Below, piece by piece: positions 3,596 to 30,477 of a stretch of DNA of 32,000 nucleotides. Where the stretch lies: contig JALDRA010000001.1 of assembly GCA_031316235.1 (NCBI GenBank), positions 420,001 to 452,000 of the forward strand, read 5' to 3'. Within the stretch, counting starts at the first letter, position 1; each line of letters begins with the position of its first letter. Both the position numbers and the translations under genes were made by a program. The DNA comes from Candidatus Scalindua sp. Lineage in GTDB: Bacteria; Planctomycetota; Brocadiia; Brocadiales; Scalinduaceae. Under the pieces are notes generated by a model that was given only the letters and a program-made list of their open reading frames with translations, had not been told where the DNA came from and did not search any database.

Positions 3596-3710
3596 TACAC
3601 TAAAACTGATTTGGTTTTCGGTTTTACCGGAAACCAAATCTTGGTTGCTGTTATACTCGCTCAATTTTATCTCGGATTTTATCCGAAATCCAGTATGAGA
3701 TGAGTATATA
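3596..3710 (+). repeat. Family-1 bipartite hairpin repeat, short form, copy 1 (X-then-Y orientation on + strand)
   Basis: Reads tacactaaaactgatttggttttcggttttaccggaaaccaaatcttggttgctgttatactcgctcaattttatctcggattttatccgaaatccagtatgagatgagtata. It aligns end-to-end with eight other copies. It lies 26 nt upstream of the mtaB start. Confidence 0.92.
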
Positions 3711-4670: not shown

Positions 4671-4806
4671 CCCACCGTCTTACTGCCTTACATAGATTCC
4701 AGACACATCCTGCCCTAACTTACTTTGCTTTCCTGCCTGCTGTCGGACGGATCGAGCAGGGAGATCTGATTCATCCGGCGGGCATTTACTCCTGCAAACC
4801 GGCTGA

Positions 4807-4918
4807 TATACTCATCTCATACTGGATTTCGGATAAAATCCGAGACAAAATTGAGCGAGTATACCTTCACCCAGATTTGATTTCCGGTAAAACCGAAAAC
4901 CAAATCGGTTTTAGTATA
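4807..4918 (-). repeat. Family-1 bipartite hairpin repeat, short form, copy 2 (inverted orientation)
   Basis: Reads tatactcatctcatactggatttcggataaaatccgagacaaaattgagcgagtataccttcacccagatttgatttccggtaaaaccgaaaaccaaatcggttttagtata, the reverse complement of the copy-1 architecture. Confidence 0.92.
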
Positions 4919-4945
4919 TCATTGCACTGAGAGAGGAGTTTAAAT

Positions 4946-6152: not shown

Positions 6153-6292
6153 TATACTAAAACCGATTTGGTTTTCGGTTTTAACGGAAACCAAATCTTG
6201 GTTGCTGGTATCCCCGGACAAAAAACGCCGAGGACTATACTCGCTCAATTTTGTCTCGGATTTTATCCGAAATCCAGTATGAGATGAGTATA
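6153..6292 (+). repeat. Family-1 bipartite hairpin repeat, long form (with 24-nt linker insert), copy 3
   Basis: Same X and Y modules as copy 1, plus ccccggacaaaaaacgccgaggac (6212-6235) between them. It lies 59 nt upstream of the radical SAM gene. The 6049..6282 ORF is a translation of this repeat. Confidence 0.92.
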
Positions 6293-6351
6293 TTTAAACC
6301 AACCTGTCTTTTTTTCTTTCAACAGTTCGACTTTTTCATGTTCGGTAAAAA

Positions 6352-9055: not shown

Positions 9056-9114
9056 TATACTCATCTTGCAAGGGCTTTCACAAAAAATCCGAAAACCATT
9101 ATGAGATGAGTATA
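9056..9114 (+). repeat. Family-1 repeat, isolated Y-module variant (copy 4)
   Basis: Reads tatactcatcttgcaagggctttcacaaaaaatccgaaaaccattatgagatgagtata. The ends are TATACTCATCT/AGATGAGTATA. The right half matches the ..ATCCGAAAACCATTATGAGATGAGTATA variant also seen in copies 6 and 7. Confidence 0.8.
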
Positions 9115-9171
9115 TACATAATTTATCAAGAGTGCACAGCACCGAGAAACACTATTTCGAGAGGATTGAAG

Positions 9172-9657: not shown

Positions 9658-9739
9658 GTCCTCGGCGCCTGGTTGTCCGGGGATGCCATTAACCAGGCTT
9701 TGGTTTTTGAAAAATCTAACACCAGATCGGTTTTAGTAT
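9658..9739 (-). repeat. Family-1 repeat, degenerate fragment: linker insert plus X-module (copy 5)
   Basis: Reads gtcctcggcgcctggttgtccggggatgccattaaccaggctttggtttttgaaaaatctaacaccagatcggttttagtat. It matches the reverse complement of the long-form linker plus X hairpin. It is more diverged than the other copies. Confidence 0.75.
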
Positions 9740-9885
9740 CTCTTTAATAATCGAATCCATGCCAGAAAATTATTCCCACAGACTGCCATTAAGGATGCTG
9801 TCATCGGTAAGATAGCATGAAGCAATAAAAGAGCTCTTTTTTCTCCTGCCCGGCGAGAGTCCGTTCCCGTGACTTTCTCTGACCG

Positions 9886-17202: not shown

Positions 17203-17315
17203 TATACTCATCTCATAATGGTTTTCGGATAAAATCCAAGCTAAAACGAAGCGAATATAACTGCTACCAAGATTTGGTTTTTCAAAAAGCCTGAAACCAA
17301 ATCGGTTTTAGTATA
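17203..17315 (-). repeat. Family-1 bipartite hairpin repeat, short form, divergent copy 6
   Basis: Reads tatactcatctcataatggttttcggataaaatccaagctaaaacgaagcgaatataactgctaccaagatttggtttttcaaaaagcctgaaaccaaatcggttttagtata. The X hairpin keeps a 10-bp core with a remodelled apex. Confidence 0.88.
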
Positions 17316-17342
17316 ACGTACTCTGGAGGAACCGTAAACAGT

Positions 17343-17464
17343 GGTTGAACGCAAACTGCCCAGATACAAGGCGCGTAAGAATTTCGTTACCGGAGCGTAC
17401 TCAAGTACGTGAGGATCACGAATTTCTTACAGCAACGCAGCAGCTGGATAGTTTGCGTTCAACC
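17343..17464 (+). repeat. Family-2 122-bp long-hairpin element, copy 1
   Basis: Perfect 15-bp terminal inverted repeat ggttgaacgcaaact/agtttgcgttcaacc. Inner 13-bp stem gtaagaatttcgt/acgaatttcttac. Conserved apex accggagcgtactcaagtacgtgaggat. About 80% identical (97/122 by hand alignment) to 29440-29561. Confidence 0.88.
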
Positions 17465-18112
17465 AGAGGGTTTCCGTGCCACCACAATGACCGACTTCGT
17501 ATAATCAACCCCTATCATTCGATGGAAAGGTGCGATAAATATACGTTTGAGAAAAAATTTCACTCTTGAAGCGTTATAGGTGCGGTATATTTCCTGGACC
17601 TCAAGACCGGCACGCAGGCACAATCCGCCAAGCTCCTCATAGCTGTAGGGAGTGCGGTGTGTAGAATCCATGAGATAGCAGGATGGATTAAATATATTGG
17701 GTGTGCTCATAACCAGGCATGCACCGGACTGCAGAACCCTCGCACACTCCCTGATCAGATCCTCCCCCTCCTGAAGCGTAAGGTGTTCGATAACTTCCCA
17801 CGAAATAATAAGGTCGAAGTGCTCCTCAACTTCATGCAGGCTTCCGTAATCAGGTGAAAGAGCCGGATCTACATCCACCGTCTTGAATATAATATCCGCA
17901 TAAATTCTCTTCAAACGCCGGCCCCACTCCGAATTACCGGCTCCGACGTCTAATATCCGTGCACCATCTTTCATTAACGATCGAACAAGCTCAAGACGTT
18001 TCCGTAAAACGGGAACCTTCCAGATTGAATTATACCGCTTATGAATCTCGTCACGATTACGGAACACATTGGACCATGAAATTCTCGTATCGGTTTGTTG
18101 TGCATTTGACAT
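17459..18112 (-). CDS. Class I SAM-dependent methyltransferase
   Basis: 217 aa. Motif I ILDVGAGNSEWG and post-I/II motifs (DLIISWEVIEHL). The last two sense codons and the stop lie inside the family-2 element. Confidence 0.8.
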   Translation of the reverse strand: MSNAQQTDTRISWSNVFRNRDEIHKRYNSIWKVPVLRKRLELVRSLMKDGARILDVGAGNSEWGRRLKRIYADIIFKTVDVDPALSPDYGSLHEVEEHFDLIISWEVIEHLTLQEGEDLIRECARVLQSGACLVMSTPNIFNPSCYLMDSTHRTPYSYEELGGLCLRAGLEVQEIYRTYNASRVKFFLKRIFIAPFHRMIGVDYTKSVIVVARKPSG

Positions 18113-18164: not shown

Positions 18165-18276
18165 TATACAAAAACCGATCTGGTTTTCGGTTTTACCGGA
18201 AACCAGATCTTGGTGAAGGTATACTCGCTCAATTTTATCTCGGATTTTATCCGAAAACCATTGTAAGATGAGTACA
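18165..18276 (+). repeat. Family-1 bipartite hairpin repeat, short form, copy 7
   Basis: Reads tatacaaaaaccgatctggttttcggttttaccggaaaccagatcttggtgaaggtatactcgctcaattttatctcggattttatccgaaaaccattgtaagatgagtaca. It carries a compensatory T-A to C-G change in the X stem. It lies 53 nt upstream of the methyltransferase start. Confidence 0.9.
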
Positions 18277-18539
18277 TTACCGCAACTCGGCAGATGGGCA
18301 GTATTCTTTCCGGCACCATTTAAACGCATGGAAGGGTGAGGAGTCAAGCCTATTTTAACTCTCGGCCAAACCTTTACAAGGGATACTTATCGTTCCAGGG
18401 ATGTCATCCCCGCATGTTTTCTGGCAGGAATCGAGAGTAAGTTCACTGCGAAAGAAGAGCTAATCAGCCGTAACCCCTCTATAAAACAATGGTTAAGCAT
18501 GGCCATAATTCCTGAACTGAACACCTCGTTAATAATTAC

Positions 18540-18608: not shown

Positions 18609-18748
18609 TATACTGAAACCGCTTTGGTTTTCGATTTTACCGGAAACCAGATCTTGGTTAATGGTATCCCCGGACAAAAAGCGCCGAGGACCTTACTCGC
18701 TCAATTTTATCTCGGATTTTATCCGAAATCCAGTATGAGATGAGTATA
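18609..18748 (+). repeat. Family-1 bipartite hairpin repeat, long form, copy 8
   Basis: 140 bp, with 138/140 identity to copy 9 by direct comparison. Contains the 25-nt linker insert ccccggacaaaaagcgccgaggacc. Confidence 0.93.
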
Positions 18749-18795
18749 TTGAGAAAATAATGAGTGTAAATAATGAGTGTATAGAGCCGCGTTTT

Positions 18796-20047: not shown

Positions 20048-20187
20048 TATACTTAAACCGATTTGGTTTTCGATTTTACCGGAAACCAGATCTTGGTTAA
20101 TGGTATCCCCGGACAAAAAGCGCCGAGGACCTTACTCGCTCAATTTTATCTCGGATTTTATCCGAAATCCAGTATGAGATGAGTATA
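20048..20187 (+). repeat. Family-1 bipartite hairpin repeat, long form, copy 9
   Basis: 140 bp, differing from copy 8 at only 2 positions. A direct repeat of copy 8 located 1,439 bp downstream. The 20097..20357 minus-strand ORF is a translation of it. Confidence 0.93.
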
Positions 20188-20239
20188 TACGGGTTTATTG
20201 AGTGCAGGAGAAATACAATTAACGGGATGTAATACCTAT

Positions 20240-27064: not shown

Positions 27065-27221
27065 AAACAAGCGGAATGTGTCAATAGGGATTACACACTT
27101 TTTTAAAAAATTTATTAAACGAATAGGAGACTAATTAGTGCGTGAACAAAAAACCCTGTGTATGAGCAAAAATAACTTTACCTTTTCGCCTCTCATTTTG
27201 AGGGGCTGATCAGAAGGGCTG

Positions 27222-27345
27222 TTGGCTCGTTACTTTCGCCTCACCGATTTACTACTTGAATTTGACCCTGATTCAGGCATACCTCATACAAGATCACTGA
27301 ATAACGGTTTATTTGAATTACGTCTAAAAGGAAAAGAGGGCATTG
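27222..27345 (+). pseudogene. Internal fragment of a Gp49-like/RelE-HigB-family toxin gene (DUF891-type)
   Basis: ..[37 protein letters not shown] matches the central ..LLEEFGPNLGMPYVKKL.DGLWELRIK... region of phage Gp49-like toxins. The N-terminus is cut by an in-frame TGA upstream. The C-terminal half is replaced by the kinase gene. Confidence 0.55.
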
Positions 27346-27354
27346 CACTCAAGT

Positions 27355-29200: not shown

Positions 29201-29439
29201 ATGATTTCCCAGACAGGAGAAGATGGATACAAATTGGCACGATACCTCCGTAAAAACCTGTCTCTCTCAAGTAAAAACAATAGAGGGGCCATTTCGGGCG
29301 GTAACAAAAATGGTATTATATAATATGAGAATTAGTAGAGCATTAAACAATGGGAAATGACATCCCCATAATCACCCTTCAAACGGGGACTTTAATAGAG
29401 TAAAGAATCCGGCAACAATTTAGAAAAAGATCAAATAGC

Positions 29440-29561
29440 GTTTGAACGAAAACTGACCGGATGCAAGGCGCGTTAAAATTCCGGAACCGGAGCGTAATCA
29501 GGTACGTGAGGATTACGGAATGTTAACAGCAACGCCGTAGATGGGTAGTTTTCGATCAAAC
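29440..29561 (+). repeat. Family-2 122-bp long-hairpin element, copy 2
   Basis: Terminal inverted repeat gtttgaacgaaaact/agttttcgatcaaac (14/15). Inner stem gttaaaattccg/cggaatgttaac. Same apex accggagcgtaatcaggtacgtgaggat. Same length and register as copy 1. Confidence 0.88.
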
Positions 29562-29562
29562 A

Positions 29563-30477
29563 CTAAATACCGCTTACAATACGATTGGCAAGATCAAAGG
29601 GAAGCGCGGCTTCAAGGATTTTCTTCCTCACCGCGTGTGTGTTGTACTCCGATTTTTCCAGAAATACTTTCTGTGTTTCAGTATCGTAGATCTTATAAGA
29701 GGCCATGGGGATACCGTCTCTCGGCTGGCCAACGGAGCCGGGATTTATGTAGTAACGCTGGACAGGGCTCAGGTGAACATCGAATGACTCCAGCCTCTCT
29801 GCCGATCCTCTTTCAGCCAGCATAAGTTTTTTATCAATTTGGTCTGTCGGGACAAATACTGAAGCAGAAACATCTCTTCCTTGCCTGGTATAGAGATACG
29901 CAGCTGGTTTGTGTGTATGGCCGGCAAACGTTATCTTTGCATAGAGTAAATCATACTGTAACATTTTCGAATTCATTACATATGCATAATCTTCAGGGCA
30001 ATCGGGTGTACTGTGAACCAATTCGATTCCTAATTTCCATATCCTTTTTCTCATAACGAGAGTTTTGAGAAAAGAAATATTATCATCCCGGATAACTTTC
30101 TTTGTCCAGTTTATGGATATACCTGCCGAAGATGCCATTACCGTATTAAGCTGGCCGATAACCCGTTGATCATGATTACCCGCTATTACGGTGGCCGTTT
30201 TTCCAAGAGCACAAATAGAGTCAATGCTATCTCTTTTATCAGCAGCATCAATGTCAATTGTATCGATAATCTCTCTTATTTCACTCTTCAGGAAAGAGTC
30301 TCCGTCTCTGAGAAATCTTACGATAGTGCAGCATTCATTGGGGTTTACACCGTAGCCAACGATATCACCCAGGATAAAAACTCTCTCTATCTTCTCATTA
30401 TTTCTGTGAAGTTCCAAAAAAACAGAGATCAGGGCTTCAATATTGCTGTGGATGTCTGAAATAACCAGGAATCTCAT
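29563..30477 (-). CDS. Calcineurin-like metallophosphoesterase
   Basis: 304 aa. MRFLVISDIHSN (DxH), ILGDIVGYG (GDxxxxG), AGNHD and GHTH motifs. Confidence 0.82.
   Translation of the reverse strand: MRFLVISDIHSNIEALISVFLELHRNNEKIERVFILGDIVGYGVNPNECCTIVRFLRDGDSFLKSEIREIIDTIDIDAADKRDSIDSICALGKTATVIAGNHDQRVIGQLNTVMASSAGISINWTKKVIRDDNISFLKTLVMRKRIWKLGIELVHSTPDCPEDYAYVMNSKMLQYDLLYAKITFAGHTHKPAAYLYTRQGRDVSASVFVPTDQIDKKLMLAERGSAERLESFDVHLSPVQRYYINPGSVGQPRDGIPMASYKIYDTETQKVFLEKSEYNTHAVRKKILEAALPFDLANRIVSGI

Follow-up and report, generated by a model that had tools for sequence, protein, structure and literature searches.

Results

Two long hairpins abut gene ends in a Candidatus Scalindua genome

We analyzed a 32,000-nucleotide stretch of genomic DNA from Candidatus Scalindua sp. 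(assembly GCA_031316235.1, contig JALDRA010000001.1, positions 420,001 to 452,000; hereafter the window), which carries two copies, A and B, of a long hairpin sequence. Copy A lies between a carbamoyltransferase gene and an S-adenosylmethionine (SAM)-methyltransferase gene, and copy B between genes for a cytidylyltransferase and a metallophosphoesterase, all of them sugar- or polysaccharide-type genes; there is no transposase among the neighbours of either copy. As detailed below, both hairpins are very probably copies of a non-autonomous mobile DNA element, that is, a MITE (miniature inverted-repeat transposable element), of a superfamily that includes the ERIC/IRU repeats (enterobacterial repetitive intergenic consensus). 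The coordinates of all features are collected in Table 1.

Aligned without gaps, positions 17343–17464 and 29440–29561 are identical at 97 of 122 sites, which bears out the identity of about 80%, the equal length and the common register given in a preliminary description of this DNA. All five double compensatory changes listed there were likewise verified (element positions 2/121, G-C to T-A; 10/113, C-G to A-T; 35/86, A-T to T-A; 37/84, G-C to A-T; and 42/79, T-A to C-G). Simulations with 25 random substitutions placed on copy A reached five or more compensated pairs in 19 of 100,000 runs (P ~2e-4). Each copy is predicted to fold as one long hairpin, at −57.0 kcal/mol for copy A (z −8.4) and −46.6 kcal/mol for copy B (z −5.8), and none of 200 shuffles equalled either. 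The hairpins stand where they had been placed, but their extent had been understated by a few bases, as covariance models give 17340–17467 and 29437–29564. For copy B, TA dinucleotides at 29436–37 and 29564–65 flank the element.

The termini of the window copies read GTG(G/T)TTGAAC...GTTCAA(A/C)CAC. A 28-nt apex occurs exactly twice within the window, against zero occurrences expected by chance. This apex had been taken to be unpaired and to suggest a binding site for a ligand or protein; instead, it is mostly paired, with a 6-bp helix, GCGUAC/GUACGU, closed by a 4-nt loop. Below the helix there is an internal loop in which tandem G.A pairs are possible beside a bulged G, followed by a CC/GG step and then by a bulged A.

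The apex core recurs at the tip of hairpins in at least eight phyla

A genome collection was scanned for 20 specified bases of the apex, a pattern for which about one chance match was expected. The core was found identical in at least 120 loci from at least eight phyla, which besides Planctomycetota comprise Thermodesulfobacteriota, Myxococcota, Bacteroidota, Bacillota, Bdellovibrionota, Spirochaetota and the Alpha-, Beta- and Gammaproteobacteria. Outside Scalindua and Desulfobacterales, the matches listed include Enterobacterales, Aeromonas, Pseudomonas, Polaromonas, Curvibacter, Mitsuaria, Devosia and Lacibacterium, as well as Myxococcota, Bacteroidales, Bacillaceae, Listeria, Clostridia, Silvanigrellales and one spirochaete. 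In every listed lineage a hairpin of ~100–130 nt bears the apex at its tip; the stems, which still pair, have a sequence and a G+C content (34–79%) specific to the lineage. Full-length copies with 80–92% identity to the window copies are present in Ca. Scalindua genomes, members of the Planctomycetota, which match both repeat families of the window (the second is described below) at 80–95% identity. These matches point to a Scalindua-like anammox planctomycete as the very probable source of the window. Genomes of Desulfobacter, Desulfospira and Desulfobacula contain clearly homologous full-length copies.

In Bacillaceae and in one Bacillota metagenome-assembled genome (MAG), the element lies inside rRNA operons, 5′ of the 23S (loci L016, L020, L032, L086 and L112), the 16S (L001) or the 5S gene (L070). 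The top strand of these copies is co-oriented with the rRNA, and their right end lies 1–10 nt from the mature rRNA 5′ end. Judging from this position, the top strand in Bacillaceae would be co-transcribed with the rRNA. The short, high-coverage contigs L007, L018, L036 and L079 fit copies in every rrn operon.

Several variants of the element were seen. Head-to-tail arrays occur in a Clostridia MAG (L071:6335-6853; four copies with a period of ~131 nt) and, as tandem pairs, in L072, L075 and L101. At L108:4242-4369 (Desulfospira), the apical helix GCGUAC/GUACGU has been swapped wholesale for GCAACC/GGUUGU, a compensatory replacement with GGAGC...GUGAGGA retained, and in one Scalindua subfamily the motif is GGAAC...GUACUUGAGG and the loop AAUU or CCUU. 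Different short inserts lie directly 3′ of the apex GTGAGG(AT) in Pluralibacter, Salmonella and Desulfobacter (L080:6524-6620, L100:2510-2600, L059:4903-5044 and L078:5158-5298); they recall the ~70-bp internal insertions reported for E. coli ERICs. A copy on a 381-nt contig of Rhodococcus sp. WS4 (L022, coverage 0.98) has only 2 differences from the E. coli copy in L095 over 125 nt (apex plus 50-nt flanks) and is probably contamination of that assembly. Phages and plasmids were considered as vehicles between phyla and set aside: viral contigs and phage records gave 0 matches each, and the plasmid matches were apex-only, mostly in very large E. coli records (up to 4.9 Mb).

Two resemblances of the apex to ribosomal sequences may be coincidence. 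The purine motifs of the top strand (AAGG, GGAG and GAGGA; 17389–17416 and 29486–29513) are Shine-Dalgarno-like, and their complement (CCUCA and GCUCC) is anti-Shine-Dalgarno-like. Also, the apex read circularly resembles the sequence of the 23S sarcin-ricin loop, AGUACGAGAGGACCGGAG; the sarcin-ricin-like string is missing from ERIC proper and from the Desulfospira copy with the GCAACC...GGUUGU helix.

The hairpin is maintained by compensatory change

We used two covariance models, one from Scalindua and Desulfobacterales copies only (R1), and the other without these copies and without canonical ERICs (R2). In the Scalindua/Desulfobacterales family (33 sequences), double compensatory changes were found at 25 of 40 predicted pairs. 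In the lineages that were not used for derivation of the structure, aligned to the model structure, 88.6% of cells were paired, in comparison with 53.7% in shuffles and ~35% with slid partners, and 36 of the 40 pairs covary. Thus, the earlier proposal that compensatory change keeps the hairpin became stronger with more copies. The non-Scalindua lineages also keep columns that lay outside the search pattern, namely a 5′ AGG, a 3′ AAC and the bulged A; the AAGG columns of the internal loop in Table 1 lay outside it as well.

The 31 Scalindua and Desulfobacterales loci, of ~8 kb each, yielded 41 non-overlapping R1 matches, 32 of which, in 24 loci, were also found by BLAST with copy A. R1 gave full-length matches of up to 78 bits in other phyla, and it detected canonical ERICs, which are without the exact apex, at 43 bits (L054:5772-5900; E ~1e-7) and at 22–31 bits (L054:3736, L095:4452 and L122). 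Conversely, the R2 scores were 101 and 90 bits for the two window copies and 27–49 bits for five canonical ERICs, and a 50-kb E. coli control gave no match. With Rfam 15, no match at gathering score was obtained in the window, in line with the preliminary description, or in 18 other-lineage loci including ERIC. Raising E to 10 returned noise only, and across the window and 27 loci the gathering and E-value thresholds retrieved rRNA and tRNA only.

Copy B is inserted at a stop codon

Copy B reads TA/GCGTTTGAAC...GATCAAACAC/TA, and many Scalindua and Desulfobacterales relatives read TA/GTG...CAC/TA. About half of them have a further stretch of 21 nt that directly repeats the left end. TA borders copy B on both sides, as it does most relatives of the short and the long form, whereas the ends of copy A have decayed to CA...AG.

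In the window, the metallophosphoesterase C-terminus is followed by TAG and then by TGTTTGATCG. We compared 19 metagenomic loci that encode orthologues of this protein (66–75% amino-acid identity), none of which contains the element. The orthologues have the same or nearly the same C-terminus, ...DLANRIVSGI, followed by TAA, TGA or, at one locus, TAG, and five of the 19 are identical over the last 20 residues. Since the orthologues share the C-terminus but are without the element, copy B is inserted exactly at the stop codon of a gene that elsewhere lacks it. The terminal repeat regenerates a stop codon, in copy B as TAG (TA plus G) and in copy A as the TGA within GGTTGAAC, and the copy B protein is therefore intact. 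Copy A changes at most the last codon of the methyltransferase, the orthologue comparison covering copy B only.

The element is thus short, non-coding and multi-copy, with terminal inverted repeats (TIRs), empty orthologous sites and no transposase of its own, which are the general features of prokaryotic MITEs. It could instead be a free-standing structured non-coding RNA or a cis-regulatory RNA (a small RNA, or a riboswitch-like or protein-binding element) that is kept by the host and is not mobile DNA. The strong covariation, the conserved asymmetric loops, the strand-specific folding advantage with its excess of G.U pairs (see below) and the location of the Bacillaceae top strand just 5′ of rRNAs would all suit such an RNA. 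However, it would not be expected to occur in multiple copies among unrelated neighbours, with TA flanks and with nested and tandem copies, or to be absent from all 19 orthologous loci; moreover, scanning revealed no consistent promoter or intrinsic terminator inside the element, and Rfam gave no match. We therefore regard this alternative as unlikely. The two readings are compatible, as a mobile element can carry a functional RNA module.

One strand folds better than the other

In 94 of 105 copies the top strand of the element folds better than its complement; the advantage is 9.4 kcal/mol under RNA parameters and 4.1 kcal/mol under DNA parameters. The top strand is 58.6% purine, and its annotated pairs include more G.U than A.C (87:28 and 100:17). 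Purine-purine mismatches outnumber pyrimidine-pyrimidine mismatches by 140:25 in the non-Scalindua lineages (alignment A6), the ratio being 31:30 in Scalindua and Desulfobacterales (alignment A5). Where the top strand has G.A pairs, the weaker-folding strand has an open CUCA/CUCC internal loop.

These asymmetries bear on the earlier claim of selection on the folded structure. Five compensatory changes alone are no proof of RNA function, because inverted-repeat DNA can gain such changes at the DNA level; the strand-asymmetric folding and the types of mismatch nevertheless make the claim plausible. They also bear on the view that the palindrome is kept purely at the DNA level, by hairpin-templated correction or as symmetric transposase sites, so that the paired changes and the conserved centre would be uninformative about a folded single strand. 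Covariation is to be expected of inverted-repeat elements anyway, and the apex does contain a true palindrome, CGTAC-N4-GTACG. Yet GGAG and GUGAGGA, like AAGG and AACGC, are not mutually complementary and are still kept across phyla, and double-strand symmetry predicts neither the folding advantage of one strand and its excess of G.U over A.C nor, outside the Scalindua/Desulfobacterales set, the bias towards purine-purine mismatches. We hold a purely DNA-level palindrome to be very improbable.

Copies at stop codons share one orientation

To describe the position of the element relative to genes, we counted stop codons within 12 nt of 108 full-length copies, using open reading frames (ORFs) of at least 90 codons; some of the loci are orthologous. 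In 42 copies, an opposite-strand stop lay at the right end of the purine-rich top strand, and in 3 a same-strand stop lay at the left end (binomial estimate ~1e-9, made with some orthologous loci included). Both window copies and the canonical ERIC at L054:5772 are among the 42. Copies away from stops lean to the other orientation, a weak trend (p ~0.08). Elements at stop codons in Yersinia ERIC, too, reportedly share one orientation. We rejected a replication-strand bias as the cause. The GC skew of the top strand was positive in 46 and negative in 53 of all copies, as opposed to 11 and 31 of the stop-adjacent copies and 35 and 21 of the others; the overall balance means that the orientation rule follows gene context, not the direction of replication. 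Selection may act against very stable hairpins that begin at the stop codon and so give rise to the rule, or the rule could be a property of the insertion mechanism. As the right end abuts an opposite-strand stop, the mRNA of the gene would carry the pyrimidine-rich, weaker-folding strand after its stop codon.

A fixed orientation relative to an asymmetric neighbour would also be expected of a REPIN/PATE-type element moved as single-stranded DNA by an HUH (Y1) transposase, either a RAYT or an IS200/IS605 TnpA, that recognises the folded top strand. Consistent with this, the conserved non-canonical features are confined to one strand, which alone folds well, under DNA parameters too, and the interior of the hairpin is more conserved than its termini. 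HUH enzymes, however, make no target duplication, which TA on both flanks would fit, and at ~125 nt the element has three to five times the length of a REP and bears no GTAG/CGTC tag (compare PMC3733652). In addition, the overall GC skew shows no bias, crude ORF clustering, confined to the 120 loci, revealed no Y1-like gene family, and reviews describe ERIC as an element with TIRs and a target-site duplication (PMC3184786). Movement by an HUH enzyme is thus distinctly unlikely.

Other repeats and features of the window

The gap that holds copy A had been described as a pile-up of structured repeats in which the hairpin forms a second family, and our analysis supports this. The first family consists of repeats of 113–141 nt with two hairpin modules, located at 3596–3709, 4806–4921, 6153–6293, 17203–17315, 18165–18277, 18609–18749 and 20048–20188, with partial repeats at 9056–9128 and 9673–9740. 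Copy A lies 27 nt downstream of the repeat that ends at 17315, as previously noted. Family-1 repeats occur in Ca. Scalindua genomes with up to 96% identity, and at two Scalindua loci (L053:6839-6957 and L084:995-1110) family-1 sequence replaces the left outer arm of the hairpin described here, one MITE being nested in the other. The ends of the family (TATACTCATCTCATA... and ...TAGTATA) resemble the ERIC terminal repeat (TATGAGATGAGTATA vs TAT--GACGAGTATA), a short match that may be chance. If it is genuine, two families coexist in this genome, one resembling ERIC at its ends and the other in its interior. The sole non-repeat segment of the window with a strong match, at 27210–27346 (137 nt), is 91% identical to Scalindua L117:7777-7913.

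Table 1 Positions of the two hairpins and of associated features in the window (R1 and R2, covariance models as defined in the text)
Feature	Position	Strand	Remarks
Copy A, very probable ERIC-like MITE	17340..17467	+	R1 134.6 bits, R2 101.4 bits, both full-length; purine-rich top strand on +; fold −57 kcal/mol
Copy A conserved internal loop, 5′ half (AAGG)	17368..17371	+	Columns 74–83% conserved in non-Scalindua lineages
Copy A apex ACCGGAGCGTACTCAAGTACGTGAGGAT	17389..17416	+	From the base upward: CC/GG step, bulged A, G plus tandem G.A loop, 6-bp helix, 4-nt loop
Copy A conserved internal loop, 3′ half (AACGCA)	17434..17439	+	ERIC has AACGCAGCA at the matching position
SAM-methyltransferase gene	17459..18112	−	TGA stop (17459–17461) and last codon inside the copy A terminal repeat GGTTGAAC
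Copy B, very probable ERIC-like MITE	29438..29563	+	R1 121.6 bits, R2 90.4 bits; TA flanks; absent from 19 orthologous loci
Copy B apex ACCGGAGCGTAATCAGGTACGTGAGGAT	29486..29513	+	
Metallophosphoesterase gene	29563..30477	−	TAG stop made of the flanking TA and the complement of the last base of the element (C29563)
Terminator-like hairpin	29350..29369	−	Consensus scan only; ~70 nt beyond copy B on the metallophosphoesterase strand
Family-1 repeat adjoining copy A	17203..17315		Not part of the element

Discussion

Our analysis suggests how such an element may spread and act. It would be moved in trans by a transposase, for which the TA flanks make a DDE enzyme that duplicates TA, of the IS630/Tc1 type, the textbook candidate. 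In analogy to Yersinia ERIC, the element may be co-transcribed into 3′ untranslated regions (UTRs) as a long, interrupted hairpin and may modulate mRNA decay. If the hairpin at 29350–29369 is a terminator, copy B falls within the 3′ UTR, with the stop codon on one side of it and the terminator on the other. According to reviews, the ribosome at the stop codon melts the outer stem of the Yersinia ERIC and thereby exposes an RNase E site (PMC2229807; PMC10969869; PMC3184786).

The core of the element, consisting of the AAGG/AACGC loop, the bulged A, the CC/GG step, the G with tandem G.A pairs and the apical helix, may serve as a recognition module for a conserved partner, either a mobilising enzyme or a host factor binding RNA or single-stranded DNA, that would act on the folded purine-rich strand. 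A near-invariant core with freely changing termini is the reverse of what is ordinarily expected for a transposase and its TIRs. Tentatively, we raise the possibility that the ERIC core is a pan-bacterial, strand-specific structured module, carried on MITEs whose terminal repeats vary between lineages and, as its near-invariance in at least eight phyla would then imply, read by a universally conserved partner, with the stop-codon and orientation rule being a mechanistic signature of that partner and not just post-insertion selection. The partner could be the long-sought machinery that moves ERICs, acting via the interior of the hairpin rather than its ends, or a host RNA- or single-stranded-DNA-binding factor.

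Several points weigh against assigning the hairpins to an ERIC-containing superfamily of mobile elements. The terminal repeats, GTGTTTGAAC..., are unrelated to the TATACTC.../...GAGTATA of ERIC, the overall identity to ERIC is only 36–46%, and reviews confine ERIC to the Enterobacteriaceae and Vibrionaceae, outside of which a planctomycete host lies (PMC10969869; PMC3184786). The invariance of the apex is partly a matter of ascertainment, since the collection scan demanded it, and fitting the alignments to the model structure somewhat inflates the pairing and covariation figures. The TA duplication is deduced from the flanks, and the sole comparison of filled and empty sites, which involves diverged species, misses a clean duplication by one base. 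As to the transposase, clustering of 1984 ORFs from the 120 loci gave only generic families, those recurring being histidine kinases, ABC ATPases, AspRS and GyrB. The parts in 3′ UTRs and in mRNA decay proposed above are drawn by analogy only, and a simple role as a 3′ UTR element does not explain why the best-conserved and best-folding strand is antisense to the abutting gene.

ERIC repeats have been typing targets for three decades. The present distribution turns an enterobacterial curiosity into a workable comparative problem, in which covariation defines the fold and the partner protein could be sought by phyletic profiling. From the rule on stop codons and orientation and from the unequal folding of the strands, concrete predictions follow for RNA-seq, Term-seq and binding assays. 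The distribution matters for annotation as well, as the elements are unannotated in RefSeq E. coli, are without an Rfam or other model, and create or replace the stop codons of real genes.

Among known systems, Correia/NEMIS of Neisseria and RUP of the pneumococcus are alike in their size of 100–150 bp, their TA target duplication, and their co-transcribed hairpins with RNase-mediated effects on mRNA (PMC2229807; PMC10969869). They show no sequence or core-motif similarity, however; they are defined by their TIRs (Correia also by an IHF site) and are restricted to a genus. The REP/BIME and REPIN/RAYT systems resemble the element in being intergenic, often in 3′ UTRs, and in forming hairpins that are recognised as single strands, with strand asymmetry; REPs, by contrast, measure 20–40 nt, are tagged with GTAG or CGTC and lack a TA duplication, whereas the window element is 122–126 nt long and untagged. 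We also considered integron attC sites, as the GTTGAAC...GTTCAAC ends match RYYYAAC...GTTRRRY at 6 of 7 positions each (by eye), and ruled them out: the copies are solitary and 12 kb apart, the window has no integrase, the ends are lineage-specific, and a conserved centre is not an attC trait.

The likeness to ERIC goes further. It was first spotted through the resemblance of the apex to the core of the ERIC-PCR primers, and the core string GTGAATCCCCAGGAGCTTACATAAGTAAGTGACTGGGGTGAGCG was then confirmed to be present in E. coli. We located the canonical E. coli ERIC between ybhJ and ybhI and aligned it with copy A. The two have in common, in the same order and at similar spacing, a 5′ AAGGCG, the apex GGAGC-N-TAC-N4-GTA-N-GTGA and a 3′ AACGCAGCA, with a G-C to U-A swap within the apical helix. 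Both form one long imperfect hairpin of nearly the same size (122–126 bp here vs 127 bp), have TA at both flanks, take one orientation at stop codons (one canonical ERIC being among these copies), and share a hot spot for insertions inside the element, immediately 3′ of the apex; covariance models cross-detect them, with scores on ERICs that are significant but modest (22–49 bits). They differ in the surroundings of the apex (CC/GG plus a bulged A here vs CCCCAG/CUGGGG in ERIC), and many relatives of the window element carry the additional 21-nt repeat. The core flanks CCCCAG/CTGGGG and GTGAAT/TGAGCG of ERIC are not common to the window element, whereas the inner part and the distal motifs are. 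ERIC itself is described as a co-transcribed element of ~127 bp with TIRs and TA at both termini that affects mRNA stability via RNase E depending on its orientation (PMC2229807; PMC3184786; PMC10969869).

Enterobacterial elements with a GCGTAC apex, such as the copy between rlmL and ycbX in E. coli K-12 (L121:2501-2625; 125 bp, in a divergent promoter region and without RefSeq annotation), have an identical 25-nt apex and the same architecture as the window copies, with 53–59% identity over 103 aligned positions and R2 scores of 44–60 bits; their outer and inner stems differ, and the AAGG/AACGC loop is less clear. Of 5426 complete E. coli genomes, 5122 have the rlmL-ycbX-type element, in 2–4 near-identical copies each. 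Delihas's RU-3 was considered as the identity of this E. coli copy and rejected, RU-3 being an unrelated REP/BIME.

The preliminary description had not recognised the element and had allowed that a match to a known REP or insertion-sequence end would count against its reading. That has in part come about, as the core and the architecture match the known ERIC/IRU family of MITEs. Because the literature limits ERIC to Enterobacteriaceae and Vibrionaceae, we conclude that the Scalindua element is a distant relative of ERIC with other termini and in a new phylum, neither an ERIC in the strict sense nor a new RNA class. The ERIC core, together with its behaviour at stop codons and its orientation, is common to at least eight phyla, a breadth that we did not find described in the available literature.

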